From an uncultured virus (IMG/VR IMGVR_UViG_3300032608_000348) (taxonomy: Duplodnaviria; Heunggongvirae; Uroviricota; Caudoviricetes), in IMG/VR virus record IMGVR_UViG_3300032608_000348: a DNA stretch of 20,000 nucleotides; one strand, written 5' to 3'. The stretch's first letter is position 1. The number at the start of each line of letters is the position of its first letter. A model generated the notes under the pieces. The model did no database searches. It was not told the origin of the DNA and saw only the letters and a list, made by a program, of their open reading frames with translations. The translations under genes were made by a program, and so were the position numbers. This document shows positions 1-20,000 of the stretch, in pieces.

Positions 1-346
1 CTTCATCGGCGCGTTCTGGGTCTGACATTGCATACCACGCCAGCGCGTTGGCAGCGATTCTCACTGCCGACTCGGCCTCACACCATGATTGGCGCTCGTG
101 ACCACATTGCCTGATAAGTTCTGCGTTTAGTTCTTCAGCACGATGCGCCGCTGCCATTGCTACCTCTGCCGCGTCACGAGCGCCTTGCCAGCTTTGGCAA
201 GCAGATTCTAAGCATTGTTCCAATTCCTTCATCTCGGCCTGGTAGCTTGTAGCCCACGACCGCCACAGGACTACCTCCAATTCTAGCTTCTCAATCCGTT
301 GCGTACAAAGGTCATTTTGGTCACTCAATAGTGCCTCTGTGCTCAT
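1..346 (-). CDS. hypothetical coiled-coil protein (3' end outside window)
   Basis: ATG at 346 with SD AAGGAGG; frame stays open to the window edge (MSTEALLSDQNDLCTQRIEKLELE...); lies directly behind the promoter at 389-417; not in ORF track. Confidence 0.75.
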   Translation of the reverse strand, partial: MSTEALLSDQNDLCTQRIEKLELEVVLWRSWATSYQAEMKELEQCLESACQSWQGARDAAEVAMAAAHRAEELNAELIRQCGHERQSWCEAESAVRIAANALAWYAMSDPERADE

Positions 347-388
347 TGTTCCTCCTTGGATTCTACTTCGGCCCATCAACTTGTTCTT

Positions 389-417
389 ATCTTACCACAT
401 TATTGCGCCGTTGTCAA
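389..417 (-). promoter_or_regulatory. sigma70-type promoter, leftward
   Basis: reverse complement reads TTGACA-17 nt-TAAGAT with extended -10 TG; spacer GCGCAATAATGTG is shared with the promoter at 5012-5039. Confidence 0.8.
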
Positions 418-423
418 TACTTT

Positions 424-687
424 TCACGCTGCGGGTATCTTGCCGCAGTTCTCACCGTCAATTTCATTGTCTGGGCCATAGCGTCGTTCTCGCGCCATTG
501 CCACGCTTTTTGCCAGCCGATTGCTTATTTCCGCAGAGTATTCAGCAAGTGTCCATCCCCCGTCACTAAAAATGCTCTCCGCGTTCTCAATATACGCTCG
601 GCATATTTCATCATTGTAGCACGCGGCATCCCCAGGCCAGATAGCATCTATCGCCTCGCCAAGCTGTTCAAAGGTCCACTTGTCCAT
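424..687 (-). CDS. hypothetical protein
   Basis: ORF with GGAGGAG SD ahead of MDKWTFEQLG. Confidence 0.7.
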   Translation of the reverse strand: MDKWTFEQLGEAIDAIWPGDAACYNDEICRAYIENAESIFSDGGWTLAEYSAEISNRLAKSVAMARERRYGPDNEIDGENCGKIPAA

Positions 688-726
688 TTCATCTCCTCCA
701 ATTATTGCCACGTTTCCTCCCACTAA

Positions 727-906
727 CTAGTAAAGACCTGACGGGTCTCCACCTTCTGGAATTCCTTTCCTGTCATTGTAAATCAGGTTTTCACCCACGC
801 AATCTTCATTGTGGCAAATGTACAGACGGTACTCAAGTTTGCCTGTAGTTCTATTTACGATATTATCCAGCCAATCCATTTCCTCACCACATTCAGGACA
901 TTCCAT
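727..906 (-). CDS. small zinc-ribbon protein
   Basis: CPEC...CHNEDC cysteine pairs; start could also be 915. Confidence 0.7.
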   Translation of the reverse strand: MECPECGEEMDWLDNIVNRTTGKLEYRLYICHNEDCVGENLIYNDRKGIPEGGDPSGLY

Positions 907-1180
907 TTTGTCCATCCCCCATCGCATCCAGCACCTCCCCAAATATTTCCTCAAACCCGCACAGTGGGTATCCAATGTCACGGTAGAATTGCATATATTC
1001 TCCGAGGCTGAATTCACCTTGGTTATACGCCCGCGCCATATCATTCAAATCTATTCGGCCCCAAATCCACCGTGCCAATGGGCTTGCTTTGTATCTGAGC
1101 ACGCCGTCAACCTCTACTATCTGGTGACTAGTCAGTCCCACCTGGAACCGCGCCCATTCTGGAATTTCAATTCTTGCCAT
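893..1180 (-). CDS. hypothetical phage protein
   Basis: 95-aa ORF with SD, packed in the minus-strand operon. Confidence 0.75.
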   Translation of the reverse strand: MARIEIPEWARFQVGLTSHQIVEVDGVLRYKASPLARWIWGRIDLNDMARAYNQGEFSLGEYMQFYRDIGYPLCGFEEIFGEVLDAMGDGQNGMS

Positions 1181-1195
1181 GTGCCACCATCCTCA

Positions 1196-1221
1196 ATTTC
1201 TATCCAGCGCTAGAGTGATTT
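1196..1221. promoter_or_regulatory. Box A 26-bp palindrome, copy 1
   Basis: ATTTCTATCCAGCGCTAGAGTGATTT, intergenic; matches 5 other copies. Confidence 0.75.
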
Positions 1222-1226
1222 GCGTC

Positions 1227-1436
1227 TCACAGCGCATCATGAGACTGCTTGAACGCTATCCCCGCCTCAATCATCTCTAGCGCCCAAGTGTAGAGCAAGC
1301 GGAATTCCTGCGTCTCGTTTTTTGTCAGCGCAGGCATCGGTGTCATAGCAAGAATTAAAAGACGCCTCAGTGCTGCTGTGGGCCATGTGTTACCCCAACA
1401 TGCCTGTAGTTCGCGCAGCAGTTCCTCAATTGTCAT
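1227..1436 (-). CDS. hypothetical protein
   Basis: SD AGGGGG ahead of MTIEELLREL. Confidence 0.65.
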   Translation of the reverse strand: MTIEELLRELQACWGNTWPTAALRRLLILAMTPMPALTKNETQEFRLLYTWALEMIEAGIAFKQSHDAL

Positions 1437-1665
1437 TTTCAGTCCCCCTCTTTGCTCTGTCATTACTTGGCAAGAACTGGTCAGTGACCAATTTGATGAC
1501 TACAACTGCGCACCCGTCCCGACCATTCATAACATCCTCAATCATGTGTTCGTCACAAAAAGAATTGTATATGCCACTAAAACCTTTGTACCACACATGC
1601 CACCGCGCAGGGCCATCGCACTCCAAGCAGTTCAGGCTATGTGTCATTTCTCTCCAATTGCTCAT
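1426..1665 (-). CDS. hypothetical protein, possible Zn-binding (CLEC...CDEH)
   Basis: overlaps both neighbours in operon fashion; SD weak. Confidence 0.55.
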   Translation of the reverse strand: MSNWREMTHSLNCLECDGPARWHVWYKGFSGIYNSFCDEHMIEDVMNGRDGCAVVVIKLVTDQFLPSNDRAKRGTENDN

Positions 1666-1852
1666 ATTCTGAATATAGGGATGCCAGGCGCTTCGCGGAG
1701 CAGTAGCAAGACCAAAGAGCACCCACTACACCGCTAATCATAAGCACAACATAGGGCGGCCAGTCTGACTTGCAATAGGCCACCCCAAGAACACCTCCTA
1801 TAACGCCCCCAACAAAGAATTCCCATTGTATATCACTAAGTATTTGTTTCAC
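1637..1852 (-). CDS. small membrane protein (2 hydrophobic segments)
   Basis: GTG start after GAGGAG; FFVGGVIGGVLGVAY and YVVLMISGVVGALW segments. Confidence 0.7.
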   Translation of the reverse strand: MKQILSDIQWEFFVGGVIGGVLGVAYCKSDWPPYVVLMISGVVGALWSCYCSAKRLASLYSEYEQLERNDT

Positions 1853-1862
1853 CGTTCTCCTC

Positions 1863-2339
1863 TCACCCCCACATACTTGAAAGCCACCATCTGGGCTTGT
1901 CTTCTGCCTCAATGTTATGCTCTTCACAGAAATTAACCAACAAATCACGCTCCTCCTGCGTAATGACCATCTCACTTGGCGTTATCTCTTCTGGATAGCC
2001 ACGGGATGCAACCTTGACGGTCCTGGGCACAGCCAATATGTACATTGGAAAATCATAACTGCAATGGAGTACTAATGCAATCGGAAGCGCAGGACGTGAC
2101 TCTTTGAAATCATGCCACAATTGATAATACTCAGCAATTCTCTCTCTAGAAGGACAGATACCTTCCAAATACTCGCCATCAGCGTCAAATATCTCAAAGG
2201 GGCGCTGGTATCCTTGTACTGCATAAATCCACCAATCTTCTATATCCCCGTCGTACTCATCCGAATCCCAAGGGAACGTTGCGCCTTCCTCATTAAACGC
2301 AATCCCAAAGCAAATTTGTCCATCTGTTGAAACACCCAT
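1863..2339 (-). CDS. hypothetical acidic phage protein
   Basis: 158-aa ORF, SD AAGGAG. Confidence 0.8.
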   Translation of the reverse strand: MGVSTDGQICFGIAFNEEGATFPWDSDEYDGDIEDWWIYAVQGYQRPFEIFDADGEYLEGICPSRERIAEYYQLWHDFKESRPALPIALVLHCSYDFPMYILAVPRTVKVASRGYPEEITPSEMVITQEERDLLVNFCEEHNIEAEDKPRWWLSSMWG

Positions 2340-2351
2340 TATTCTCTCCTT

Positions 2352-2585
2352 TCAATACTCACGGTCATAGTGCCAATCTGACGTATCCTGTGCCGCATCA
2401 GCAATCACGGCTTGCGCCTCTTTCAACTGTTTCTCAAGCTCCTCTATCCGCACCCTTGCCACTGCCAATGCCATCTCTGCCTTGGCCCAGGCTTCCTCAA
2501 GCAGCGTTTCTCTTTCCACCTCTTGCTCAAACTCCTCTGTCCTCTGCGCCACCTCTCTTGTGGTGGATTCGTTTATCTTTGACAT
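2352..2585 (-). CDS. hypothetical coiled-coil protein
   Basis: 77-aa E/A-rich ORF, SD GGGAG. Confidence 0.75.
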   Translation of the reverse strand: MSKINESTTREVAQRTEEFEQEVERETLLEEAWAKAEMALAVARVRIEELEKQLKEAQAVIADAAQDTSDWHYDREY

Positions 2586-2586
2586 T

Positions 2587-2985
2587 TTACTCCCTTGTTA
2601 TCTCTTCTGTGTTCAAGTCTACTACCATCCCAACCTCAAAGGCGTTGTAGCCCTTCTCAGTCGTGATTGCCACTGAAACAACGACCTCGTAGTTGTGGCG
2701 TGTTCCGCGCACCCGCCAACCAAACACTGCTGCTGGCACGCCCTCTTGCTGCTCTATGGCGGCTCGTGCCGCTTCAACAATCTTGTCACTCAGTTTCATC
2801 ACACCTTCGCCGCCCGTAGTCGCAAAAAGCGCGGCCGCGGCTCTATTCGCAAAAAGCGCACACGCGGCCCTATCTGGGCTGACGGATTGCCCGGATTGGA
2901 GACATTGGGAAACGTATTTGCTCGTGTGCCCAATCCCGTGCGCCCTCGTTTCTATGTGATAGCAGTCATTGCAGGTTGCACTCAC
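2587..2985 (-). CDS. hypothetical protein, possibly fusion of two small genes
   Basis: GTG start with GAGGAGGTG SD; Cys-rich N-half, 13-bp direct repeat, then internal SD-like GAAGG + ATG (MKLSDKIV). Confidence 0.6.
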   Translation of the reverse strand: MSATCNDCYHIETRAHGIGHTSKYVSQCLQSGQSVSPDRAACALFANRAAAALFATTGGEGVMKLSDKIVEAARAAIEQQEGVPAAVFGWRVRGTRHNYEVVVSVAITTEKGYNAFEVGMVVDLNTEEITRE

Positions 2986-3039
2986 TCGTCACCTCCTCAG
3001 TGTTGTATCAGTAACCCCATCTAATGCTATTCTACCACA

Positions 3040-3513
3040 TCATTGCGCCTGTGTCAATGCTTTCGCCACAGCATTTTGCCCTTCCACTACTTGGTCCCAC
3101 CTGTCACATATTTCCAGCATTTCATCATCGTGGTCTCCGTCCCACCATCCAAGTTCTTCGCAGTGTTGATACATAGCGTTGATTTCTGCAACGAGTTCAG
3201 GGGGACCAGCCAGCGCCTTCTGTGGCTCTGCGTATGCAGCCCCACCTCCCTCAACGAGTAGCGTGCCTGCGGGGAATTCATCGCGCCAGACCTGAAGGGC
3301 CTTGGATACCACATCGCTTTCCAGGTGAAACGATATAGAATCGTCACCAGCACTATACAAAGTAAATCCTCTCTGTTGATTGATAGTAGCCGCCTCAGTA
3401 GCACTGAGTTGTCTCATAACATCAATGTGCTCATCACCACATCTCAATCTGCCATAGTAATGCTGGCCCAATCCCAGAAAACGGTATGAACTGATTGTCA
3501 AGTATACAATCAT
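3040..3513 (-). CDS. hypothetical protein
   Basis: AAGGAG SD ahead of MIVYLTISSY. Confidence 0.75.
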   Translation of the reverse strand: MIVYLTISSYRFLGLGQHYYGRLRCGDEHIDVMRQLSATEAATINQQRGFTLYSAGDDSISFHLESDVVSKALQVWRDEFPAGTLLVEGGGAAYAEPQKALAGPPELVAEINAMYQHCEELGWWDGDHDDEMLEICDRWDQVVEGQNAVAKALTQAQ

Positions 3514-3666
3514 ACATCTCCTTTTCACTTGCCCTATCCCTACCCGTCCAGAACACAGGGTATGTGTGTCCCAGCAGTGAAGGGAGCATATATATCGAGA
3601 TTCTGGCCAGTAGGGAACGGTGATGTGCCCCCTCACGTAATGAAAACCTGTCCAACGCTGGACTGC

Positions 3667-4089
3667 TTAGCACGCCTGTTCTAATGAGACGGCAAAAACA
3701 AGTGGAATCTTAAACCCATCAGGCTGTTGTCCCGCCCTAAAGCCTGGAGTCCCTACAACGATATGAGAGTTTTCATCACTCGTGCAAAACACAAAGGCAA
3801 ATAAATACCTGTCCAAATCTACATCGTCATCACCGCCGCCATACGCGATTTTCTCACCAAGATAGCAGATTCTGTCTGTGTGTGTACTCTTTGCCATTTC
3901 CTCTGCCCTACAGGCTACAATGATTCTCCGGCCTGGAAAGCAATTGTCCAGAGAGGATACCAATTCGTGAGTGTGTTTGCCGCCCATTTCCCAATTAGGC
4001 GGCAATCCTTCCTCATAACCTAATGCCAGTCTCATGGTTGAGATTGCTCTTGCACAACAGTTGTTGTCACTCGCCTGTGCTATTTTCAT
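3667..4089 (-). CDS. hypothetical protein, possible C39/papain-like cysteine peptidase
   Basis: first gene after the leftward promoter; N-terminal Q-x5-C (QASDNNC) and later HIVVG resemble C39-like catalytic motifs (by eye only). Confidence 0.5.
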   Translation of the reverse strand: MKIAQASDNNCCARAISTMRLALGYEEGLPPNWEMGGKHTHELVSSLDNCFPGRRIIVACRAEEMAKSTHTDRICYLGEKIAYGGGDDDVDLDRYLFAFVFCTSDENSHIVVGTPGFRAGQQPDGFKIPLVFAVSLEQAC

Positions 4090-4145
4090 TTGTCAATCTT
4101 CCTCTGGCGTCCCATCCTCTTTGATTGGTTTGTCCACCTGATGCT

Positions 4146-4174
4146 ATCATACCACACGCTGCTAGCTTTGTCAA
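4146..4174 (-). promoter_or_regulatory. sigma70-type promoter driving the left arm
   Basis: reverse complement TTGACA-17 nt-TATGAT with extended -10 TG. Confidence 0.85.
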
Positions 4175-5011
4175 TACTATGTGTTACACCAGTTTTTGTT
4201 ACCGCTATGGGGTTTCAACCCCTTGTGCACGCCGCGCGTCGCGCCAAGTTTTTTGGGCCACACCCCTGTGGCGGCAAGAAGGGTTGCAATCGCGCTGGCC
4301 ACAAGGATTGCGGTATGGCTCGGTCGCTATCATTGCGACTACCGCCCTTGCTATGGCAGGGAGAGCAACAGCGATTGCGACTGTGGCTGCTACTGCAACG
4401 CAAGTCAACTTCTGACTACATTGTTTATGTCAACCAGACTGTAAACTGGCGCAAGACCACTGCCAAGGGCAATAGAGATGTTGGTGTAGCAATGACACCA
4501 ACTACCGCTGCCAACCTGGTTGCAGACGTAGCCAGGCCACCAGGTTAGAATTTAGTGTATGCGTGACACTAAGCCTATCAGTAGCCACAACGTGTTTTGC
4601 AAAAGGCTTGCGCATAGTGATATAAGCACATGCAATTGCTAGCAAATTAAGGCTATTGGCACCAACAGCTACACAATAGCCTACACGTTAACGTTTAAGG
4701 GCGCTTTTTGTGGCCTGTTTCTAACACGGTAGCGTCTATTCAACAAACTGCATATACTCTTACACGGTAACGGATAAGAACTGGACAAAGCGACGGTAGA
4801 ATTTGGCAAACTGCAATGAGACATTGCCAAGATTGCGACGGCCGGTGCAATAGAATGTTGCAAGGCACAAGGCACAAGGGTGCTGGCAAGGGCTGTAGGG
4901 CCACAAAGAGGGCGCTTCTGCAATGCTTTATTGCAAGGCGGTGACAATCAAAGTGGTATTGACAGCAACCTTAAGGCTGGCAAGTGACACGCTTTCCTTA
5001 AGGTTAGGCTA

Positions 5012-5039
5012 TTGACAAAGCGCAATAATGTGCTACACT
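5012..5039 (+). promoter_or_regulatory. sigma70-type promoter driving the right arm and ncRNA candidate
   Basis: TTGACA-16 nt-TACACT with TGn extension; TATTGACAAAGC is shared with the promoter at 4146-4174. Confidence 0.75.
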
Positions 5040-5044
5040 TAAGT

Positions 5045-5600
5045 TGAAGGTGAAGGAAGGAAAGACAGGAACTTAAAAACTAGAAATAGAAAAACTCAAA
5101 ACTCTCAAGATAGGGAGAGGCGAACAGCCAAGGACCCGGGGCTCGCAAGAGAAGAGAAAAGGTAAACGAAGGGGAGGCTAACCGAAGGGGAGAGCAGAGA
5201 GGAATAAAATAACCGCAAGGCCGACAGACAGAGACGATGGAAGCGATTGGCCCGGAGACTTGGCGGTGACCTGAAAACTGGGAGAGACGCGCTGGCAACA
5301 GTGGAAACCTCTACCACCTAGTAAGAGAGCCAAGCAGCGTAACATACAATCGCGGATTCACCTGGGATAGGCCGACAGCGAGTAGCGAGAGAGTGAAGAC
5401 AGGCAAACTCATTACACTATTGTAACGGAGCTCAACTTGACATACTCCACACAATAGGAACGCAGAATGAGCGAGTTTGATTTCACTTTGGCGCACACAA
5501 ACGAAGAGGCGACAATTCCTGTAAAATAATAGACACAGGGGCAAGTCAAGCCAGGCTTGCATAGTTTGTGTGCAGCAAAGTGCGATCAAGCACTTGAGCA
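5045..5600 (+). ncRNA. large structured non-coding RNA candidate (family unassigned)
   Basis: no credible + strand ORF; nested helices 5243-5249/5347-5353, 5392-5397/5482-5487, 5404-5410/5473-5479, 5417-5423/5451-5457, 5493-5502/5564-5573; several GNRA-capped hairpins; sits right behind a promoter. Confidence 0.6.
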
Positions 5601-5634: not shown

Positions 5635-5946
5635 ATGACAAGGAATAAGAGACTACTTCTGTTGAGCGTAGCACTATTGGCAATCGGACTGGGTAACGGC
5701 GCGTGCGGCGCGTCTGATGACTTGACAGTTGAGGCGGTAGTTGAGCACCAGACCGAGTCTGCGGAAAGCGGTGTAGAATGCGAGTACACGTTTATATCAA
5801 CAGAGATAAGCGTACGGCTAGCGCATTATCGTATCTGCGAAGATGACGATAATGACAAGCGTTTGGCCGCTTTGCAGAACGCTATAGATGATTGCGTGAA
5901 GGTGTGCGCTGATAACGCTGATTGCTTGGCGCAATGTGGCAAGTAG
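5635..5946 (+). CDS. putative lipoprotein
   Basis: TAAGGAG SD; basic n-region, hydrophobic h-region and GAC lipobox-like site (MTRNKRLLLLSVALLAIGLGNGAC). Confidence 0.7.
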   Translation: MTRNKRLLLLSVALLAIGLGNGACGASDDLTVEAVVEHQTESAESGVECEYTFISTEISVRLAHYRICEDDDNDKRLAALQNAIDDCVKVCADNADCLAQCGK

Positions 5947-6005
5947 TATATACACCGCCTGCGTGAGAGATTGCGCAGGCGGTACAGATCACAGGAGAGG
6001 ATAAA

Positions 6006-6350
6006 ATGACACATGCCATAGCACGTGCGTTACAAAGGTGTAACCCTTGTGCTTTCGGCCTAACAGCGGAAAGCGCAATCAGGAAAGCACAAAGCACAAT
6101 CGCAAGGCTGGCAAGTGAAAGGCCGGAACTTAGAGAATATTTGCTGATTGTCGCAAAGAGCAACAGGGTTGTAGCGGATAACGAAAAAGGATCACGCCGT
6201 AGCAATGGCGATCTGCTATGCGCAATTGTGCGCAATCGCAATGGTCGGCGAGTGATTGCTACAATGATACTCAGGCGCTCGTCACAGCCTACACGACTTG
6301 ACGGATTGCGCTATGTTATAGTGCAAGGCAATCAAGTCATTATTCTATAA
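6006..6350 (+). CDS. hypothetical basic protein, possible RelE/DUF4258-like fold
   Basis: N-terminal THAxxRxxxR and C-terminal beta strands ending VIAT; family assignment is a guess. Confidence 0.55.
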   Translation: MTHAIARALQRCNPCAFGLTAESAIRKAQSTIARLASERPELREYLLIVAKSNRVVADNEKGSRRSNGDLLCAIVRNRNGRRVIATMILRRSSQPTRLDGLRYVIVQGNQVIIL

Positions 6351-6364
6351 AGGGGAGGTATAAA

Positions 6365-7074: not shown

Positions 7075-7080
7075 GGAAAA

Positions 7081-7104
7081 GGGCAGGGTAGTACCTGCCC
7101 GATC
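7081..7104 (+). repeat. hairpin-GATC module
   Basis: GGGCAGG-GTAGTA-CCTGCCC then GATC; second copy at 7156-7178. Confidence 0.75.
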
Positions 7105-7181
7105 ATGGGCCTCGGCCGGACCACTGCCAGTCCACATCTACAGCCACGGGCAGTCGGCAGGGTAAAACCTGCCTGATCAAA

Positions 7182-7200: not shown

Positions 7201-7221
7201 AATTCACAAAGAGGAGACAAA

Positions 7222-7410: not shown

Positions 7411-7432
7411 TCAAGAATCCAAAAGGAGAAAA

Positions 7433-8413: not shown

Positions 8414-8572
8414 ATGGAAACCAAATACATCAAATACGAGGGTGAAGTTTACAAGGTGCTGGCCTCGCGCTGGCTGGGAGACTTTTCGTTCTACAAACTG
8501 GAAAGCCAATTCAGCGGCGGCGCGCCCTTTGGCGCGAAAAAGGCAGAATGCAAGGAGGCGGGCGCGTCGTAA
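8414..8572 (+). CDS. small hypothetical protein (52 aa, METKYIKYEGEVYKVL...)
   Basis: AAGGAG SD; absent from ORF track; TAA lies in the loop of the 8559-8582 hairpin-GATC module. Confidence 0.7.
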   Translation: METKYIKYEGEVYKVLASRWLGDFSFYKLESQFSGGAPFGAKKAECKEAGAS

Positions 8573-8625
8573 GCGCCCGATCTGGGAAAATCCAGAATCA
8601 CATATCACAAGAAAAGGAGATGGAA

Positions 8626-10064: not shown

Positions 10065-10320
10065 AGTACACGGCTGGCAAGTCCAGCCGATCAAGGGGCT
10101 TTCCCCTCCCCAGCTTGCGGTGACTGGAATACCAGACCAGTAGTCTCAACAAGACTGCCCAACAAGCCCGCAAAGGTAGCATACAAGCTGGGGTGGGGTG
10201 TGTCCCGATCACTAAAAGGGAGCGCCGTTCGATTCGGCACTGCGCATTGAACCTTTTGCGTCGCAGACAAACGGCTGTTAGGCCAGCATGCTGCCAGCGG
10301 GGCAGGCTCCTGATCCTGGA

Positions 10321-10987: not shown

Positions 10988-11182
10988 ATGACAGTAGCAG
11001 AGTTAATTGAAAAGCTCTTTGAGTGCAATTTAGATGCACCGGTGACGGTGTTTTTCGACCGCTACAACGGCGGTGACTATAGACAGGGGGAAGAATCCCC
11101 AGTGCTAGTTGTGGATGGGGACTATGTAATGATTGCTGCTGAAAGTGAGAAAGATGCAGCAGAGCATTGGGTGGGCGCATAA
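10988..11182 (+). CDS. hypothetical phage protein (MTVxELIEKL type)
   Basis: AAGGAG SD; stop in hairpin loop GGGCGC-ATAA-GCGCCC. Confidence 0.75.
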   Translation: MTVAELIEKLFECNLDAPVTVFFDRYNGGDYRQGEESPVLVVDGDYVMIAAESEKDAAEHWVGA

Positions 11183-11191
11183 GCGCCCGCT

Positions 11192-11214
11192 CTTGTAGTA
11201 TCATATACTACAAG
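11192..11214. promoter_or_regulatory. Box B palindrome (10-bp arms)
   Basis: CTTGTAGTAT-CAT-ATACTACAAG. Confidence 0.8.
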
Positions 11215-11465: not shown

Positions 11466-11771
11466 ATGATAATCGCTACCATAGAAATCCAGAAGACCCG
11501 CAAGGGTTGGGGTTGCTGCACTGTCGTTGAGTATCCTGGTTGGCCCCATCCTGCCAAGACACATGAGGGATTTGACACGCTGAAAAGTGCGCTGTGGCAT
11601 TTTGTACTAGATTGCATTGACTATGACTGGGCAATTGAATCAGTCACGGTGAAGGGTGAGAACATGCCACTGGCGGAGGTCTGTGAGATAGTTGAGAAGG
11701 CGCTGCGTGACGGGGTGCTTAAGTACCGGCTGCCTGGTGTACGCGAGGCGCTTAGGCCAAAGGGCGCATAA
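11466..11771 (+). CDS. hypothetical protein
   Basis: AAGGAG SD ahead of MIIATIEIQK; stop in hairpin loop GGGCGC-ATAA-GCGCCC. Confidence 0.75.
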   Translation: MIIATIEIQKTRKGWGCCTVVEYPGWPHPAKTHEGFDTLKSALWHFVLDCIDYDWAIESVTVKGENMPLAEVCEIVEKALRDGVLKYRLPGVREALRPKGA

Positions 11772-11788
11772 GCGCCCGATCATGGGTA

Positions 11789-12625: not shown

Positions 12626-12700
12626 CAATCAGGGCAGGATGAAAAAAGCCTGCCCCGATCATTGGGTAAAATGTAGCATCATACTACAAAGGAGGATTTA

Positions 12701-13768: not shown

Positions 13769-13838
13769 TGCAACAAGGCAGGTGAAAGCCTGCCTGATCT
13801 GGGAAAATCCAAAATCATATCAAACAAGGAGATGAAAA

Positions 13839-14207
13839 ATGAAAGATGAGGTTCTTTTTATTGAGGGCTGTCACGAAATGAAACGACCCGATAGTATACC
13901 TGAAAGCTGGACAATTTACAACGCGCCCCGCCCGCTGCTCGGTCACGAGAGATGGCAGGCCGGATTCCGGCATGGCATTTTCTACGCCGCTGTCACTCCT
14001 GTTGGTGACCCAGCCGATGAGTTCAACGATGCACCTGAGTTTCACAGGCGCAATCGTGAACTAGACGGGCATGTATGCGTGTGGATTGGCAAGGAGCACG
14101 TAATGGAGTATGGCAAGGCACTAGCTCGGGAATATAACGTAGACCTGAGCGAGTTTGATTACCAAGACATTGTGTGCAGCTTCTTGGATGACAGAAGCCG
14201 CAATTGA
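13839..14207 (+). CDS. hypothetical protein
   Basis: AAGGAG SD after Box C; C-terminus similar to 10361-10762. Confidence 0.75.
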   Translation: MKDEVLFIEGCHEMKRPDSIPESWTIYNAPRPLLGHERWQAGFRHGIFYAAVTPVGDPADEFNDAPEFHRRNRELDGHVCVWIGKEHVMEYGKALAREYNVDLSEFDYQDIVCSFLDDRSRN

Positions 14208-14244
14208 GAGACGTGGCATCATACTACAAAAGGGAGGCAAAGTA

Positions 14245-14589
14245 ATGGTAACACTTACACTGTACAAAAATCTTGATGAAGACCAGCCTATAACATTCAA
14301 GGCGCGAACGATGGGAAAGGTTACGCTCAAGTTATCCGAGTGGATGGACAAAAACAACGGCACATTTGACCCACGCCAAGGGACTTATCCAATGGGTTGC
14401 GACGGGCTGACCGTTTTCTTGGAGGATTGGCCTGGGGATATTGTCCTATGCTATATGGAAATCTACAAGGAATGGGAAATCACCTTTGACCAAGACCCCG
14501 CCAATCCAGAAGGATACACGAACTATGCCGATGCTCGCGAGCGATTTGTCCAGCTAGCAGATGATTGGGGAGAATGGGAGGAAGCATGA
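14245..14589 (+). CDS. hypothetical protein, paralog of next gene
   Basis: GGAGG SD; MVTLTLYKNLDEDQPITF. Confidence 0.8.
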   Translation: MVTLTLYKNLDEDQPITFKARTMGKVTLKLSEWMDKNNGTFDPRQGTYPMGCDGLTVFLEDWPGDIVLCYMEIYKEWEITFDQDPANPEGYTNYADARERFVQLADDWGEWEEA

Positions 14590-14918
14590 TACTAACACTG
14601 TACCGAAACTATGATACCACGCAGCCTGTGAAGTTTGAGGGACGGTCCAAAGAAGGATTGCTCTACAAGCTCCAGCAGTGGCTGGACAACGCCAACGGTG
14701 AGATTGACCACGGGAAACAGCGCCACAAGCCGCTTTGGGCGGATGGGCTTGCCATTGTCCCCAGCGGACGGGGGGCAATTGTACTGATGCGAAATGGCAA
14801 GAAATGGGAGGTTTGGAAAGGCGCAACGTCCAAGCCACTGGCGTCTGCAAGCTGGGTTATCGCTCGTGCTATTTTCCTGCACTATGCATACACCCACTGC
14901 AAGGAAGAAACCCCTTGA
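14586..14918 (+). CDS. hypothetical protein, paralog of previous gene
   Basis: ATGA overlap; MILTLYRNYDTTQPVKF. Confidence 0.8.
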   Translation: MILTLYRNYDTTQPVKFEGRSKEGLLYKLQQWLDNANGEIDHGKQRHKPLWADGLAIVPSGRGAIVLMRNGKKWEVWKGATSKPLASASWVIARAIFLHYAYTHCKEETP

Positions 14919-14949
14919 CAAAAGCGCAGAAATGTAGTATCATATACTA
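14915..14949 (+). promoter_or_regulatory. sigma70-type promoter overlapped by Box B
   Basis: TTGACA-17 nt-TATCAT; the -10 lies inside TGTAGTATCATATACTA. Confidence 0.75.
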
Positions 14950-15019
14950 AGGGATTGGCGTGGGGGCTAGTAAAATCTGGCACGGATGCGCAGTCCATAT
15001 TTTAATGATAGGAGGCAAA

Positions 15020-15190
15020 ATGGAAAGGCAAGATTGTGAGTTTTGCAGAGAGACTGACGGGGAACATGCTTCTTGGTGTCCATATACGGTGGAAAGACAA
15101 GATTGTGGGTTTTGTGGCTGGACTGATGGGGAGCATGCCCCAGGCTGCCCACGCGACCCAGAGGAAAACGGCCTGAGCGGGGACTGGTAA
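15020..15190 (+). CDS. small protein with two tandem CxxC-H-C zinc-binding repeats
   Basis: AGGAGG SD; 69-bp period duplication ERQDCxFCxxTDGEHAxxCP. Confidence 0.75.
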   Translation: MERQDCEFCRETDGEHASWCPYTVERQDCGFCGWTDGEHAPGCPRDPEENGLSGDW

Positions 15191-15303
15191 AATCCAGCAC
15201 GCAGGCAAATGTGAGCGCTTACGGAGAACATCCGCAGATGGGGAGGCCAGATAGGGGGAACTGGCAACGCCAATCGTGAGAGCAAATCGTAAAGGAGCAA
15301 AAT

Positions 15304-15609
15304 ATGGAAAATGAAGAGTACCTGTGGCTCAACCTTTCAGACCTGAGCGAAATGGGCAGCGTAGGCAACTTGTGCAACCCTATCTACTTTATGGTATGCC
15401 CTGACCTTGGAGATGAGAATGTTGGCACGTATGCTCACGCTGACAAACTTGATGAAGTCTATATTGTACTCAAGTCCAGTGCTGAACGATGCAAGGCAAT
15501 TCGTGAGGCAATGGAATTGATTGGGGAAAAGAAAATCGGGCGCAAGGTCCGAACACGAACAACCAAGAACTCCCCGCGCGCCAACTGGCGCTGGCTGGGG
15601 AGTTGGTAG
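15304..15609 (+). CDS. hypothetical protein
   Basis: AAGGAG SD, 101 aa. Confidence 0.75.
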   Translation: MENEEYLWLNLSDLSEMGSVGNLCNPIYFMVCPDLGDENVGTYAHADKLDEVYIVLKSSAERCKAIREAMELIGEKKIGRKVRTRTTKNSPRANWRWLGSW

Positions 15610-15634
15610 TCCAAACAGGACAAAAGAAAGAACA

Positions 15635-15826
15635 ATGGAAGACATACAAATAGTGGAACAAATCTTCGTAGAAGTTACCGCAATCTACAGATTGAAGCAT
15701 CAACAGGTGAAAGCCCAGAAACTAGCAGGGCATATCCGCCATCTCAGGCATCTGGCCTGGAACTCCCTGACCCCAAAGGAGAGATTGATGATTCGGGAGG
15801 TGTTAGACTATGTGAACAACCAGTAG
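15635..15826 (+). CDS. hypothetical protein
   Basis: MEDIQIVEQ; purine-rich leader, SD weak. Confidence 0.6.
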   Translation: MEDIQIVEQIFVEVTAIYRLKHQQVKAQKLAGHIRHLRHLAWNSLTPKERLMIREVLDYVNNQ

Positions 15827-15891
15827 TCCAAAAGACATTGGCAGAAACAGGGGCAATTGAGACCTCACACACACGAAAAGGAGGTAGGGAG

Positions 15892-16164
15892 ATGATTGAC
15901 AGAGAGCTTTTTGCCAACACTAATACAGTTCCGATGTGCCCTGGTGGCTTGGACGCAATCGTAAATAAGAAGTTTACGGTTGTGTACTGGAAAAAGTACA
16001 GCGATGCCCTGGTCATTTACCAGTGCCAAATGGCGGACGGGCGGCGCGAAACAGTGGCACAGTTCTCGCTGGAGAGCGAGCGCTTTCTGGAACGTTCCAG
16101 CCTTCCAGTACGGGCGCGGATGAGCTGGGATGGTTGGCGCTATAAGCTAGTAGTGGGCGACTGA
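15892..16164 (+). CDS. hypothetical protein
   Basis: AAGGAGGT SD ahead of MIDRELF. Confidence 0.75.
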   Translation: MIDRELFANTNTVPMCPGGLDAIVNKKFTVVYWKKYSDALVIYQCQMADGRRETVAQFSLESERFLERSSLPVRARMSWDGWRYKLVVGD

Positions 16165-16214
16165 GACCCCCAATGACAAAGGGCGCAGAAGCGCCCGATC
16201 CAGGAGGAGCAGCA

Positions 16215-16600: not shown

Positions 16601-16631
16601 ACAGAAACTGAAAAATCCAAAGGAGAAAGCA

Positions 16632-16844
16632 ATGACAAGTCCAGATTTTAGATTGAGAGTGCATTTTGGAGAAATGGAAACGACCTATGAGATGCTTGTT
16701 GGAGAGCAATCACTGGGAAGCCGTTATTGGCGCTGCCATAGTCCGCTTCCTGCCACCAGGAAGACAGCCATTCTTTTTGAAGAGCTTAAGGCAGCCCTGG
16801 GGCGGTTTCATAATAGGGTTAGGGAGGAGGGAAAGTCCAAATGA
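16632..16844 (+). CDS. hypothetical protein
   Basis: AAGGAG SD, 70 aa. Confidence 0.7.
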   Translation: MTSPDFRLRVHFGEMETTYEMLVGEQSLGSRYWRCHSPLPATRKTAILFEELKAALGRFHNRVREEGKSK

Positions 16845-17016
16845 AGTCCAAACTTACTATCATTCTTCTGGTGTTGCTCTTAGTGGCCTGCGGCGGCACA
16901 GTGGCCACGCCCACGCCAACACCTACGTCATACGAGGTGGCTATAGTGGACGTGCTCAGCCAGTATGCCCAAGCGATAACGCGCCTCAAGAAATCTATCC
17001 AGCGCCGGAGTGATTT
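16841..17016 (+). pseudogene. lipoprotein N-terminal fragment ending at Box A copy 5
   Basis: LVAC lipobox + ATPTPTPT linker; frame runs through the palindrome and the tRNA to a stop at 17143. Confidence 0.5.
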
Positions 17017-17038
17017 TAACACTCTCTCTCAACCAAGA

Positions 17039-17110
17039 AGGGGCGTAGTCCAACTGGCAGGACAGTGGCCTTTGAAGCCAAAGATGCAGGTTCAAATCCT
17101 GCCGCCCCTG
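17039..17110 (+). tRNA. tRNA-Gln(UUG)
   Basis: cloverleaf: acceptor AGGGGCG/CGCCCCT, D stem GTCC/GGAC, anticodon loop CTTTGAA, T arm GCAGG-TTCAAAT-CCTGC; no encoded CCA. Confidence 0.92.
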
Positions 17111-17139
17111 TTGCGCAAAAATTGCCACACGCTAACCTC

Positions 17140-17168
17140 TTGACAGGAACAGGGAAGTGTGGTAAGAT
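17140..17168 (+). promoter_or_regulatory. sigma70-type promoter
   Basis: TTGACA-17 nt-TAAGAT with extended -10 TG. Confidence 0.85.
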
Positions 17169-17175
17169 AGGAACA

Positions 17176-17306
17176 GTTAGGGGGAGCTACGGCGCGGCAG
17201 ACGCCGGTGAAGAGGAGCGCTCGTGCGGAGCTTCGGGGACTCGAAAAGCCTGCCACTTCTCCGTGGCAAGGCTAGATGACAGGGGAAGGACCTGTCTCCC
17301 CCTAAC
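17176..17306 (+). ncRNA. structured small RNA candidate 1
   Basis: perfect 11-bp closing stem GTTAGGGGGAG/CTCCCCCTAAC starting at the predicted TSS, with three or more internal hairpins. Confidence 0.6.
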
Positions 17307-17318
17307 AAGTACAATCAA

Positions 17319-17422
17319 GATTCCCCGCGCTGTTTGAGACGGCGGTACGCTCAATAAAGAGCAGGGGCCTAGTTGGAAGAATGGGGAAAGGGAAAACCGG
17401 GTAGACGGCAGCGCGGGGAATC
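17319..17422 (+). ncRNA. structured small RNA candidate 2 / long inverted repeat
   Basis: perfect 14-bp stem GATTCCCCGCGCTG/CAGCGCGGGGAATC enclosing 76 nt. Confidence 0.5.
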
Positions 17423-17456
17423 CTGAAAAATCAACAAGGCAGGAAAGGAGCGCAAA

Positions 17457-17810
17457 GTGATAAGGTTCTACTGTGAAAGATGCGGGAAAGAGATGTGGGA
17501 ACTGGCAGAGGAACTAGCAGGATGGGATAGCCTCCGCCATATTCCGCTTGGTAAAGTAAAACAGTTGCTTGTCTGTTCTGATTGCTTGCTTGCTGAGATG
17601 CGCGGGGGCGCAGTGCCCGTGAAGGTGAAGAAAGCCCAATACGCAATCCAGTGGGTGGATGATGAGTGCGTAGGCTACCTGTGCGCCTGTGGAGAAAAAG
17701 AGGTGCTGATTGTGTCTATCTATGAAGATTCACCTGCGCATTGCCCGACGTGTGGGAGGGCCTATGTGCTGCGCCAGTCCAACACGGTAATAGAACTTGC
17801 TCACGCATAA
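17457..17810 (+). CDS. zinc-finger protein
   Basis: AAGGAG SD, GTG start; CERC, CSDC, CAC, CPTC. Confidence 0.7.
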   Translation: MIRFYCERCGKEMWELAEELAGWDSLRHIPLGKVKQLLVCSDCLLAEMRGGAVPVKVKKAQYAIQWVDDECVGYLCACGEKEVLIVSIYEDSPAHCPTCGRAYVLRQSNTVIELAHA

Positions 17811-17857
17811 TGTATTACACCCATTTTGATGCTGCGGTGGGATTTTTTGTAGCATCA

Positions 17858-17883
17858 TAATCACTCCAGTGCTGGAGTGAAAA
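17858..17883. promoter_or_regulatory. Box A palindrome, copy 6, fused to a Box B half-site
   Basis: TAATCACTCCAGTGCTGGAGTGAAAA preceded by TGTAGCATCA, abutting SD. Confidence 0.7.
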
Positions 17884-17894
17884 GGAGACAAGCA

Positions 17895-18095
17895 ATGATG
17901 ACAGTGGAAGATATTCTGAAGCGGGTAGAGAGAATCAGGAACAGCGATGGCGACAATGAAGATATGCACTTTGATGAAGACGTGTTGTGGGAGAATGTGC
18001 TAGAAGCCATTGCGCGTGGTGCCCCCAACGCCCCAGAATTGGCACAAGCTGCCCTGCGCACAAAGGAACTGAAGTTTACGCGGTGGTATGCGTAG
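17895..18095 (+). CDS. hypothetical phage protein
   Basis: AAGGAG SD; MMTVEDILKRVERI...FTRWYA. Confidence 0.75.
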   Translation: MMTVEDILKRVERIRNSDGDNEDMHFDEDVLWENVLEAIARGAPNAPELAQAALRTKELKFTRWYA

Positions 18096-18169
18096 CAGTC
18101 CAAGGTTCAGCGCAGCAAGTGTGCATAATCTGATTGTGCATACCACCTGCGCCGAACCAAGGGGGAAAG

Positions 18170-19090
18170 ATGACATTCAAGAAGTGGCCCAATATTGAGA
18201 ACCACTACCGGGACAAGTTCATCCAAGGAGTCCTTGACCAATATCCTGAATTGGCAGATGAGGAGTTCGTGATTACTGAAAAGCTACATGGCGCTTGCCT
18301 AACTTTGGTCTTCACGCCCCATGAATCAATGCGCGTCGGCAGCCGCAACCGCTTTCTTGAGCAAGGTTCCAGATTTTATGATGTCTGGAATACACTAGGG
18401 AAATATCAAGAGATGCTTGACCACTTCCAAGAATGCGTCAACTATCGTCCCGCTACTTACCGCTGGTTCGGGGAATACTTTGGGGGCAACGTCCAAAAGG
18501 GCGTCAACTATGGGCCTAGGCATCGCATCTTGTTTTTTGGGTTAATGGTTGATGACATTCTCACGCCTTTTAATATCACGGAAACCTATGCACAGGCGTG
18601 GGGCTTTCCACTTGTCCCCATTGTTGCGCGTGTCCAAGGACTGGATAGTGCCCTAGCAATAGACACGCGCTTCAATTCTCTCATTGGCATAGGCACGGAC
18701 AATCTCTGTGAGGGTGTGGTAATTATGCCAGCCAATGGGGTTTATCACTGGAATCACAGTATCTTTATGCTCAAGAAGAAGAATCCAGAATTTGCTGAGC
18801 GCCAAAAGTCCAAACGTCCAAAGATAGTTGATGATGAAGCCATGCGCCTAAATATGCTCTTCCGAGAATATATCACTCTCCCTCGATTGCAAGGAATCTT
18901 CTCAAAGTACGGGGAGATTCAAGAGCCAGCACAAATTGGGCAATTCATCCGCTGGATGCTGGAAGATGCGCTGGAAGACTTCCTCCAGGACTATGGTGAG
19001 GAGTTCGGTACAATGGACAAGAAACAGCAAAAGCAAGTGCTCAATGTCGGTGGTCTAATTGCTGACATGTTGAAGGGGGGATACTTATGA
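18170..19090 (+). CDS. rnl2: ATP-dependent RNA ligase, Rnl2 family
   Basis: N-terminus FKKWPNIENHY (T4 Rnl2-like), motif I EKLHG, GSRN, FGEYFG, EGVVI, motif V LKKKN-x-x-F-x-E, Rnl2-like C-terminal domain. Confidence 0.9.
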   Translation: MTFKKWPNIENHYRDKFIQGVLDQYPELADEEFVITEKLHGACLTLVFTPHESMRVGSRNRFLEQGSRFYDVWNTLGKYQEMLDHFQECVNYRPATYRWFGEYFGGNVQKGVNYGPRHRILFFGLMVDDILTPFNITETYAQAWGFPLVPIVARVQGLDSALAIDTRFNSLIGIGTDNLCEGVVIMPANGVYHWNHSIFMLKKKNPEFAERQKSKRPKIVDDEAMRLNMLFREYITLPRLQGIFSKYGEIQEPAQIGQFIRWMLEDALEDFLQDYGEEFGTMDKKQQKQVLNVGGLIADMLKGGYL

Positions 19091-19302
19091 AAAGCGAATG
19101 CGTTATATCTGTTCCATACACCATTACCACCACCATTTTATGGCTTGGCATTGCTGCGAGTTTCATCATGTGGCTTTACAGCATCATTGGCGCTGACCCG
19201 CGCTTGCTGTACCTTGCGGGCGCGACGCTGGTCCCAGCAGCGGCAACGTTGTTGGCCCCTTGGCTATGCGCATACAGAAAGTCCAAAAAGGAGGGAAAAT
19301 GA
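19087..19302 (+). CDS. small membrane protein (2 hydrophobic segments)
   Basis: ATGA overlap; hydrophobic ILWLGIAASFIMWLYSII and LLYLAGATLVPAAATLLAPWL. Confidence 0.7.
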   Translation: MKSECVISVPYTITTTILWLGIAASFIMWLYSIIGADPRLLYLAGATLVPAAATLLAPWLCAYRKSKKEGK

Positions 19303-19598
19303 ACAAGAAGGAACTCCAAGAAAGGCTGTTTGCTCTATGGAAATTGGATGACTATGAACTAGAGTCTCTTTGGAGACAGGGTGAAGAATCGCTTGACATA
19401 AATATTCTGCAAAAATGGCCCAACACTGCTGTCCAGATTACATATCGGGCCAATCCGCATCAACATTACGATGGACTGGGATTTACCAAGGTCCGGTATC
19501 CTGACAAGTGGGACGCTGACTACGGCATTGGCCTGGCCGTAAAGAAGGCGCTGGCGTCCATTGCCCGCCAAATTGTGGAGGATGAAGATGGAGAATGA
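19299..19598 (+). CDS. hypothetical phage protein
   Basis: AAGGAGG SD; G-x-x-K...PD-x-WD...G..LA..KA motif. Confidence 0.75.
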   Translation: MNKKELQERLFALWKLDDYELESLWRQGEESLDINILQKWPNTAVQITYRANPHQHYDGLGFTKVRYPDKWDADYGIGLAVKKALASIARQIVEDEDGE

Positions 19599-19806
19599 TG
19601 AGGGCTGGGCACGCCCCAGCGGGTTTCACAAATGGCACTACTTCATAGAGGCACGCCCTCTCTGTGAACTAATCATAGTGGGAGCAGATGTTGCGCTGGT
19701 GCTAGAACAGGGCAATGATAACTCCCCGAATAACTGTTCTTTTTGTAGGGAGACATTGACTAAAATAAGGATGGAGAAAAGGGAGAAGAGCTATGTTGGT
19801 CATTGA
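19588..19806 (+). CDS. hypothetical protein, possible Zn-binding (WHYF...LC...CSFC)
   Basis: GGAGG SD ahead of MENDEGW. Confidence 0.7.
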   Translation: MENDEGWARPSGFHKWHYFIEARPLCELIIVGADVALVLEQGNDNSPNNCSFCRETLTKIRMEKREKSYVGH

Positions 19807-20000
19807 CATTGAAACAACCGCGAACCAAGAAATGCTGGACTTTGTAGAAGTTCCCAAAATGGTGGGTCCAGGAGATGCGCCGAAGAGTTACAAGAAGCCT
19901 GAATCCATCGCGGGGTGGATGGAAAAAGAAACCGCCAAGCGCGAGGCCGCTTATCAAGAACGTCTGAGCAGGATGGCGTTGGACATTGACTGTGCAAGAA
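19793..20000 (+). CDS. 3'-5' exonuclease, DEDD/PolB-type (N-terminal part, truncated by window)
   Basis: GGGAG SD; MLVIDIETT ExoI motif, then PKSYKKPESIAGW...ALD; frame open to the window edge; not in ORF track. Confidence 0.7.
   Translation, partial: MLVIDIETTANQEMLDFVEVPKMVGPGDAPKSYKKPESIAGWMEKETAKREAAYQERLSRMALDIDCAR

Follow-up and report, generated by a model that had tools for sequence, protein, structure and literature searches.

How does GATC, a word that a phage genome avoids almost everywhere, come to be kept at one structural position between genes? The question is raised by a 20,000-nucleotide (nt) stretch of an uncultured member of the Caudoviricetes (IMG/VR record IMGVR_UViG_3300032608_000348), referred to here as the window, in which most surviving GATC copies lie at the 3′ foot of GC-rich hairpins at gene ends. 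A preliminary description had listed 14 copies by manual scan, and our recount found exactly these (5584, 5987, 6190, 6210, 7101, 7175, 8579, 10089, 10207, 10312, 11778, 12657, 13796 and 16197), with none in 1–5583 or beyond 16200. The strong deficit reported there is also real, but the expectation of about 78 copies, which assumed equal base frequencies, was slightly high: 200 dinucleotide-preserving shuffles gave 66.0 ± 8.3 copies, with at least 14 in all 200, and a second-order Markov estimate gave 68.7. The ratio of observed to expected copies, 0.20, is the lowest among all 256 four-letter words.

We drew our own gene map from open reading frames (ORFs) and Shine–Dalgarno sites, which assigned 16,161 bases as coding and 3,839 as non-coding. 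On this independent map 12 copies are intergenic and 2 coding, both in the coding sequence (CDS) 6006–6350, as had been proposed, and the comparison of the two compartments revealed no coding sites that the manual scan had overlooked. Inside genes, 2 copies remain against 55.5 expected, a removal of about 27-fold, whereas between genes 12 are found against 13.2 expected, that is, no removal. Other palindromes are also scarce (observed/expected: TCGA 0.38, CCGG 0.44, CATG 0.48 and AGCT 0.49), but they are depleted about equally in both compartments (CATG 38/71.9 coding and 5/17.1 intergenic; AGCT 29/58.8 and 7/14.0). The contrast between coding and intergenic sequence is thus specific to GATC among the depleted palindromes. 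The deficit of the other four suggests general palindrome avoidance, with several restriction systems in the host range, and the simplest reading of the genome-wide loss of GATC is that the phage, as is ordinary, avoids restriction directed at this word.

The copies that remain are tied to secondary structure on one strand. The fold of the 33 nt upstream of GATC ranks among the most stable 5% of random positions at 10 of the 14 copies on the + strand and at 3 of 14 on the − strand. Under a strict foot rule (a perfect stem of at least 6 pairs, at least 5 of them G–C, with its foot −1 to +2 nt from GATC), 8 of the 14 copies were selected on the + strand and none on the − strand, against a background of 34 in 9,994 per strand (0.34%) in 1.73 Mb of unrelated viral loci (binomial P = 5 × 10−17); loci L001–L055, which had been chosen by the hairpin–GATC pattern itself, were excluded from this background. 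An earlier count of 11 copies near a hairpin foot, two of them at weak hairpins, was essentially right, although we count ten strong cases and one weak: the hairpin before 10312 is indeed weak, but 10207 is the 3′ foot of a long helix. Seen from the genes, a strong hairpin stands at 9 of the 35 gene ends on the + strand, with GATC in eight of them and GCTC in one (11189). Genes in the window run leftward over about 1–4,500 and rightward from about 5,600, as judged by GC and AT skews and the ORF map. No foot element lies among the leftward genes or beyond 16,200, and those present split 5,635–16,164 into blocks of one to seven genes. The two coding copies can pair with each other, but this fold is no better than shuffles (z = −0.88).

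Is the arrangement conserved? An IMG/VR profile search with the FtsK-like protein of the window returned one related record, L057 (G001; 119,094 bp, 91% complete by the collection's estimate). It has three genes in common with the window at 35–41% identity, the FtsK-like protein being at 41%, and by gene content (tape-measure protein, major head protein, portal, ribonucleotide reductase, DnaB-like helicase and DNA methyltransferases) it looks like a large siphovirus. GATC is depleted throughout G001 (123 copies against 464 expected; 0.27), and the strict foot rule selects 4 of the 123 copies on the + strand and none on the − strand (P = 9 × 10−4); two more copies close a 45-nt repeat in CCCGATCT. 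Upstream of the FtsK-like gene the two phages have an orthologous site, with the same succession in both of stop codon, 7-bp GC stem, GATC, AT-rich palindrome, Shine–Dalgarno and ATG. Stem, loop and palindrome have all been replaced between the two, and GATC is unchanged. The claim that GATC is kept beside hairpins therefore survived comparison with a related genome. A tie between depletion and retention, which the preliminary description had implied, was not established: coding GATC in G001 has no sense-strand asymmetry (A after GATC 38, T before GATC 45), so that the depletion looks like DNA-level restriction avoidance, separate from the retention of the hairpin copies. Among the 109 coding copies of G001, those followed by C (6) or preceded by G (8) are especially rare. 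Contigs from four runs (two studies) that are nearly identical to the window show no change at GATC, but almost none anywhere, and are uninformative.

Over 17 elements from both phages, GATC (17/17) is preceded by C at −2 (16/17) and a pyrimidine at −1 (16/17) and followed at +1 by A in 11 cases and by G in none, with a G-rich stretch at +3 to +5; the 10-mer GCGCCCGATC is common to both phages. The stems, of 6–10 bp with loops of 4–10 nt, carry a G-rich 5′ arm and a C-rich 3′ arm. In the window they fall into mutually unrelated families (GGGCGC/GCGCCC, GGCAGG/CCTGCC, CGGCTGG/CCAGCCG and ACCGCCTGCG/CGCAGGCGGT), the relative has four further, different families, and a MAFFT alignment of 13 elements left the 5′ arms out of register. 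The offset of GATC from the stem is fixed (−1 to +3 nt), whereas its distance to the next start codon (14–50 nt) and to downstream motifs varies. We examined 15 elements for coupling to stop codons; one (G001 26408) has no ORF end nearby, and in the other 14 the stem starts 6–9 nt after the stop nine times and 16 nt after it once, while in four the loop contains a TAA stop.

Had GATC survived neutrally, its offsets would be random and both sides of the stem would carry it, which is not seen. Positive selection on the retained foot copies, as previously proposed, is therefore well supported, by the enrichment at hairpin feet and the coding–intergenic contrast as well as by the invariance of GATC across unrelated stems and its recurrence at the orthologous site. 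It is hardly credible that these copies have no function, having hitch-hiked on a duplicated cassette or persisted at hairpin-adjacent positions that are poor restriction substrates. Some copies did arise by duplication, since the GGGCGC/GCGCCC stems at 11173, 11762 and 16181 are near-identical, but duplication accounts for at most these three. GATC follows stems of at least four unrelated families in the window and of four others in the relative. Relaxed selection would have scattered the copies at random, rather than on the 3′ side in 8 of 14 and on the 5′ side in 0 of 14 under the strict rule, and would not have kept GATC at the orthologous site while its surroundings changed. This explanation is already close to refuted. 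The hairpin–GATC association is genuine, its statistical support is overwhelming, and it has been conserved over a deep split (Table 1).

Table 1. Coordinates of GATC elements, repeated words and genes in the window and in the relative G001.
Feature	Position	Strand	Description
GATC 5584, in hairpin loop	5579..5594	+	Small 5–6-bp hairpin in divergent-promoter gap; not a foot element
Stem-loop and GATC 5987	5954..5990	+	10-bp GC-rich stem, 7 nt past stop 5946; 3 nt to GATC; upstream fold, minimum free energy (MFE) −22.1; Shine–Dalgarno and ATG 6006 directly downstream
CDS with internal GATC 6190 and 6210	6006..6350	+	114 amino acids, uncharacterised family
Stem-loop and GATC 7101	7081..7104	+	7 bp, GGGCAGG/CCTGCCC, 6 nt past stop 7074; GATC at foot
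Stem-loop and GATC 7175	7156..7178	+	6 bp, GGCAGG/CCTGCC, TAA in loop; 1 nt to GATC; then AT-rich palindrome and Shine–Dalgarno
Stem-loop and GATC 8579	8559..8582	+	7 bp; loop holds stop of CDS 8414–8572; G of GATC is last paired base of stem
Stem-loop and GATC 10089	10071..10092	+	7 bp, about 7 nt past stop 10064; G last paired
RNA domain of about 115 nt (predicted)	10093..10210	+	Long helix, 10095–10120 with 10182–10206, one G·U pair
GATC 10312, weak case	10292..10315	+	5-bp hairpin, 6 nt, GATC, then repeated word AATCACTCCAGCGCT
Sister element with GCTC (11189)	11173..11192	+	Stem as at 11762; stop codon in loop
Stem-loop and GATC 11778	11762..11781	+	6 bp, GGGCGC/GCGCCC; loop holds stop of CDS 11403–11771; GATC at foot
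Stem-loop and GATC 12657	12632..12660	+	7 bp, 6 nt past stop 12625; 1 nt to GATC; position orthologous to G001 element upstream of FtsK-like gene
Stem-loop and GATC 13796	13776..13799	+	7–8 bp, GAAA-type loop, 7–8 nt past FtsK-like stop 13768; GATC at foot
Stem-loop and GATC 16197	16181..16200	+	6 bp, GGGCGC/GCGCCC, 16 nt past stop 16164; GATC at foot; Shine–Dalgarno and ATG 16215 directly downstream
G001 elements under strict rule	29726, 30532, 34611, 39725	+	24–40 kb region of G001, early-type, with small genes; each 6–9 nt past a stop
AT-rich palindrome copies	~5940, 7183, 11195, 12672, 14218, 14935, 17851	+	Window
AATCACTCCAGYGCT copies	1206, 10322, 11790/11799, 16584, 17001, 17859	both	Window
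Start-associated word	7411–7432, 8085–8111, 9590–9644, 13800–13838, 16601–16631, others	+	Window
LPD29 domain protein	12173–12625	+	PHROG/Pfam scan
FtsK/SpoIIIE-like ATPase	12701–13768	+	PHROG/Pfam scan
tRNA-Gln (UUG)	17039–17110		Overlaps mechanical ORF 16841–17143
Rnl2-type RNA ligase	18134–19090	+	PHROG/Pfam scan
DUF2688/zinc-ribbon protein	Window		PHROG/Pfam scan

What might such an element do? Our tentative preference, held with less than even confidence, is that hairpin and GATC together form an RNA-level signal at gene ends. The GC stem-loop, just past or around the stop codon, would form on the transcript, where it would cap the upstream message against 3′ exonucleases, attenuate read-through, or both. 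The single-stranded CCY-GAUC-A at its 3′ foot would be read by a phage- or host-encoded factor that cuts or ends the RNA, so that a polycistronic transcript would fall into blocks of one to seven genes, each followed by a promoter-like cassette or by the next ribosome-binding site. Hairpin copies of GATC would survive where this function outweighs the cost of restriction. The sequences themselves show the anatomy, the statistics, the coupling to strand and stop codons and the conservation in a distant relative; action on RNA, cleavage or 3′-end formation at GAUC, and the identity of the reader are our inference. The elements at 5987 and 16197 bear on the mode of action. At these two the Shine–Dalgarno follows at once, with 14–15 nt to the start codon and no space for a promoter, so the next gene must be read through the hairpin; this suits a site of processing or stabilisation more readily than a complete terminator or a DNA mark coupled to a promoter. 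The stems do not have the form of intrinsic terminators, since their tails (GATCATGGG, GATCTGGGA, GATCAAATG and others) have no U-run; none of the elements is among the terminator-like sites of the + strand, and such sites show no enrichment (27, where shuffles gave 22.3 ± 5.3).

Some of the structures have features typical of RNA. The relative has a cUUCGg tetraloop, the GAAA loop at 13776 is closed by U·G, and MFE summed over 19 elements is −339 kcal/mol for the sense strand and −323 kcal/mol for the antisense strand. A 296-nt ORF-free gap also folds better in sense (z = −2.99) than in antisense (z = −1.77). It contains a domain (10093–10206; no Rfam match) that begins right behind GATC 10089 and ends at GATC 10207, and thus has GAUC on both sides, an arrangement resembling that expected of processing sites. 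The long helix that closes it includes a G·U pair, again a feature of RNA. Whatever acts at GAUC may release this domain as a small RNA. The region of the elements is rich in small ORFan genes and is probably expressed early.

Several known systems offer functional analogies. In T7 early mRNA, RNase III cuts within long irregular double-stranded stems of about 20 bp or more. The likeness is that intergenic hairpins split a polycistronic early transcript and leave each unit a protective 3′ hairpin; the stems here, however, are 6–10 bp, too short for RNase III sites, and the conserved word is single-stranded behind the stem, only the 10095–10206 helix being longer. The RegB endoribonuclease of T4 cuts GGAG in early transcripts, so that there too a phage reads a tetranucleotide in the intergenic RNA of early genes, but that word is the Shine–Dalgarno core and not a palindrome, and no RegB relative was found among the window ORFs. 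Cas6/Csy4 recognises a short GC-rich CRISPR hairpin and cuts the RNA at its 3′ base, at the junction of double and single strand; here, in contrast, the stems vary and sit past stop codons, and only the flanking GAUC is constant. The elements were rejected as CRISPR repeats: stems differ, spacing ranges from 74 to 2,400 nt and genes lie in between.

A number of observations weigh against a signal read on RNA. The sister element at 11189 persists with GCTC in place of GATC, and the weaker gene-end hairpin at 19604–19620 carries neither word. In G001, 109 coding copies remain, so a GAUC-cutting RNase would need the hairpin context. The margin of sense over antisense stability is small, and most stems are perfect Watson–Crick helices that could form equally in DNA. 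Closeness to stop codons is partly forced by short intergenic gaps, and because all genes of the region are on one strand, orientation cannot separate transcription from an absolute strand rule. None of the seven runs listed as containing the window is an RNA run, and a full-text literature search found no GAUC-specific endoribonuclease. GATC is also the classic target of DNA enzymes, among them Dam-family methylases, DpnII/MboI/Sau3AI-type nucleases and MutH; that the retained word is such a target may be no coincidence and favours a DNA-level reading. Finally, among the genes of G001 is one for a D12-class N6-adenine methyltransferase, which scores 32 bits with PF02086 (cut-off 22).

The last two points would fit a DNA methylation mark, in which Dam-type sites at the upstream edge of a promoter cassette act as a timing switch for a class of genes. 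Methylated fully on entry and hemi- or unmethylated after replication, they would tune termination, promoter use or cruciforms. We consider this unlikely, although the relative supplies further points in its favour, with at least three more DNA methyltransferase families and a coding depletion of GATC that is strand-symmetric and hence DNA-level. Consensus sigma-70-like promoters are enriched on the + strand of G001 (24 against 12.6 ± 2.8), and at three elements (L057 3794, 6484 and 15063) the −35 box starts 15–20 nt past GATC, one promoter matching at 12 of 12 positions; no phage RNA polymerase was recognisable among the 110 of 159 G001 ORFs scanned. In the relative, therefore, this region is probably transcribed by host polymerase. 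In the window, most elements are followed by a repeated promoter-like word and a Shine–Dalgarno, with 37–50 nt to the start codon, and we found no consensus sigma-70 promoter behind them. GATC is fixed to the hairpin foot and not to a promoter element, the downstream distances vary, and 5987 and 16197 leave no room for a promoter. In known methylation-sensitive promoters GATC lies within the −10 or −35 hexamer, whereas here it would lie at about −55, which counts against the methylation mark, and a spacing of 6–9 nt from the stop codon would be meaningless for a mark on DNA. The search for a dam-like gene, proposed in the preliminary description, gave a divided answer. No methyltransferase was recognised in the scan of 51 window ORFs, which represents 20 kb of a contig whose length is at least 75.8 kb (the record of the FtsK-like protein gives 75,786 bp), and the D12-class enzyme of the relative scores 50 bits against the Dam subfamily, under the cut-off of 115, so its specificity for GATC is unproven. 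GATC itself was rejected as a −35 element (alignments match at 2–3 of 6 positions, and the registers shift), as was an extended Shine–Dalgarno in which GAUC pairs with the 3′ end of 16S rRNA, since GATC lies 5′ and not 3′ of the Shine–Dalgarno.

The overall architecture has a counterpart in the PeSL cassettes of the T4-type phages RB49, phi1, PST and nt-1. As described in PMC2839356 and PMC4122927, these consist of a stem-loop, an AT-rich stretch, a sigma-70 early promoter, a Shine–Dalgarno and a start codon; the stem-loop, a G-run paired with a C-run, serves as terminator or attenuator, and the cassettes lie between ORFans and are prone to recombination. The likeness extends to small composite intergenic cassettes between ORFans, a stable G-rich/C-rich stem-loop right behind the upstream gene, sigma-70-like promoters past three G001 elements and assemblies that branch at common cassette words; most of the 51 window ORFs have no family match, as in the plastic ORFan regions of PeSL phages. 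In contrast, 'GATC', 'Dam' and 'methylation' do not occur in PMC2839356, most window elements have no recognisable sigma-70 promoter, and the phages here are not T4-type. In RB49 (1–50,000) GATC is not depleted (297 against 284 expected), and none of its 14 GC-rich coding-strand hairpins is followed by GATC, which lies inside the stem of two; a foot GATC is therefore not a PeSL trait. The architecture is a variant of known phage ORFan cassettes of stem-loop and promoter, and the new part is the invariant copy of an avoided tetranucleotide.

Avoidance as such is familiar. T7 and other enterophages avoid GATC, and the under-representation here (0.20 in the window, 0.27 in the relative) is similarly strong. 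The phiX174 genome contains no GATC at all, according to PMC5014478. Many of the unrelated phage loci in our comparison have 0 copies against 40–87 expected, and in none of the other depleted loci compared were the survivors concentrated at one structural position. We know of no described case of such concentration, and a full-text literature search returned no description of GATC retained at hairpin feet.

Elements at the borders of ORFan blocks could also be places where DNA is nicked, cut or recombined, by a GATC-directed nickase or nuclease guided by the inverted repeat or as hot spots of module exchange. Strand-specific nicks in T5-like phages offer an analogue, and all elements have one orientation on one strand, although this is equally expected of a transcript signal where the genes are all on that strand. 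Assembled contigs branch into other flanks near an element, at 10321–10357 (three of the four runs compared), and at 17017 (four of four). Similarly built PeSL cassettes mediate shuffling, according to PMC2839356 and PMC4122927. The branch points, however, fall in AATCACTCCAGYGCT and not in the hairpin or GATC, and may simply be due to repeats at which short-word assemblies break. We recognised no gene for a nickase or for a MutH-like or Sau3AI-like protein among the window ORFs or the 110 scanned G001 ORFs, and the spacing to stop codons would be left unexplained. We therefore think a nick or recombination site improbable. The word AATCACTCCAGYGCT itself has seven copies with up to two mismatches, on both strands, against 0.1 expected, and the branching suggests that its region is one cassette used across several contexts or genomes.

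The consensus, which extends past GATC on both sides (C at −2, pyrimidine at −1, A at +1 and G-rich +3 to +5), raises another possibility, that a protein binds CCYGATCA beside the inverted repeat, on DNA or RNA, with GATC incidental and no link to methylation or cleavage. Such a protein might be a roadblock that aids termination or an antiterminator, and the 10-mer shared by the two phages would be part of its site. Cluster K mycobacteriophages reportedly carry start-associated sequences, repeated words with an unknown reader, which count in favour of such a regulator. Those words, too, are short, repeated and placed at gene boundaries, but they are said to sit at gene starts and to include the ribosome-binding site, whereas the elements here sit at gene ends behind a hairpin. 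The window has its own start-associated word, (A)ATCCAAAAG and/or CATATCACAA, directly 5′ of the Shine–Dalgarno of many rightward genes; it also occurs in the relative (L057 ~3020). No candidate binder is known, and it would be a striking coincidence for an arbitrary word to contain the most-avoided tetranucleotide. We hold a regulator site to be rather doubtful as a separate explanation, and if the binder acted on RNA it would overlap with the gene-end signal that we favour.

If the elements are indeed RNA-level gene-end signals, the product of CDS 6006–6350 deserves attention: it is the only CDS with GATC, the first element stands immediately before it, and G001 carries a homologue. Its family comprises 7 close matches and 19 representatives at E ≤ 0.001 among 1.84 billion entries, with residues R11, G68, R76, T86 and R90 invariant and H3, S66, N67, L89, R91, Q94 and L101 nearly so. 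None of 22 members has a Pfam match at E ≤ 0.001, the family profile matched at best an unrelated designed protein among PDB sequences (E = 0.76), and a match of an eight-member profile to uL14 (E = 0.057) was discarded as not significant. Two AlphaFold2 models (predicted local distance difference test 79.5 and 82.1) place three N-terminal helices on an antiparallel sheet; the fold of the RelE/ParE superfamily is a helical hairpin at the N terminus, packed on an antiparallel sheet of 3–5 strands. In a structural search with the second model, 16 of the 20 top rows were RelE, ParE, YafQ, HigB, YoeB or similar toxins, as we read the titles of the entries; the best Z scores, 4.4–4.5 (root-mean-square deviation 3.2–3.4 Å over 68 residues), are under the level that the tool treats as meaningful. 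Foldseek gave no match in the PDB at E ≤ 0.001; the ESM Atlas gave sub-threshold hints of RelE/ParE type for this CDS and no usable match for 6550–7074. The predicted fold thus weakly resembles RelE/ParE toxins, which is consistent with a small RNase-like protein but is not evidence for the reading of GAUC. It is highly doubtful that the protein is a RelE-like endoribonuclease of a new family that targets GAUC and cuts early polycistronic transcripts into hairpin-capped units. Were it so, the GATC retained in its own gene could serve autoregulation, and coding GATC would have been expelled by restriction together with the phage's own nuclease.

Short palindromes in phages are usually read only as restriction targets, and here an avoided word is also a conserved signal. 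With its selective cost visible in the 27-fold purge, each of about ten retained copies must pay for itself, and retained against purged copies form a clean natural experiment. Acting on RNA, the element would be punctuation by sequence plus structure without RNase III-type stems or U-tracts, possibly with a new small nuclease family; acting on DNA, it would mark the boundaries of gene blocks by methylation or nicks. In either case, a hairpin foot with an avoided palindrome is a simple, searchable signature for regulatory elements in ORFan-rich uncultured phages.

Other relatives of the window are few. Seven runs, which come from two studies and carry the labels freshwater and viral metagenome, contain its DNA, and megablast of 9 kb against 50,697 phage records found no deposited phage that matches it. 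Close relatives (P0002–P0004 and P0122–P0126; 74–89% protein identity) are known as proteins only. IMG/VR scans with one protein at a time (the FtsK-like protein, the RNA ligase and a G001 early ORF) returned nothing or the G001 record alone, and a metagenome scan returned a single unrelated contig with 30% GC and normal GATC content. The IMG/VR patterns GGGCGC-N4-GCGCCCGATC and GTAGTATCATACTAC gave 55 and 31 single hits, respectively, which we dismissed as chance matches having no genes in common with the window, except for one LPD29 hit in L004, where GATC content is normal.

Family matches were found for 5 (PHROG) and 4 (Pfam) of the 51 window ORFs. The FtsK/SpoIIIE-like ATPase is short (355 amino acids) and does not match PF09397, which we take to be the winged-helix gamma-domain family carried by many of the cellular homologues in the search; its nearest named phage homologues are in cluster J mycobacteriophages (38–39% identity), and G001 has two FtsK-like genes. 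A search for KOPS-like GGGNAGGG, prompted by this gene, found 6 copies against 2.4 expected with no orientation bias, and the motif was rejected. The DNA methyltransferases of G001 (L139–L144) represent at least four families (D12-class adenine, phage N6A type, CcrM/ParB-type and Dcm-type cytosine), the CcrM/ParB-type being a pair of fragments with an HNH gene and a transposase between them.

An AT-rich palindrome, GTAG(T/C)AT and ATACTAC separated by 1–3 nt, recurs directly 5′ of Shine–Dalgarno sites in the window and probably serves this gene class as promoter or operator. One copy (14915–14943) is an 11/12 sigma-70-like match, and an analogous, different palindrome precedes the FtsK-like gene of G001 (L057 9955–9975). 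At the tRNA-Gln gene, loose contig ends at 17066 and 17101 in the sequencing runs continue into other tRNA-like sequence, so related genomes probably differ in their tRNA sets here. The 346-nt gap that follows it (17111–17456, + strand; no Rfam match), with a promoter-like TTGACA-17-TAAGAT at 17140–17168, folds far better than shuffles (z = −5.49) and is a candidate for a structured non-coding RNA or for a long leader belonging to the gene at 17457–17810.

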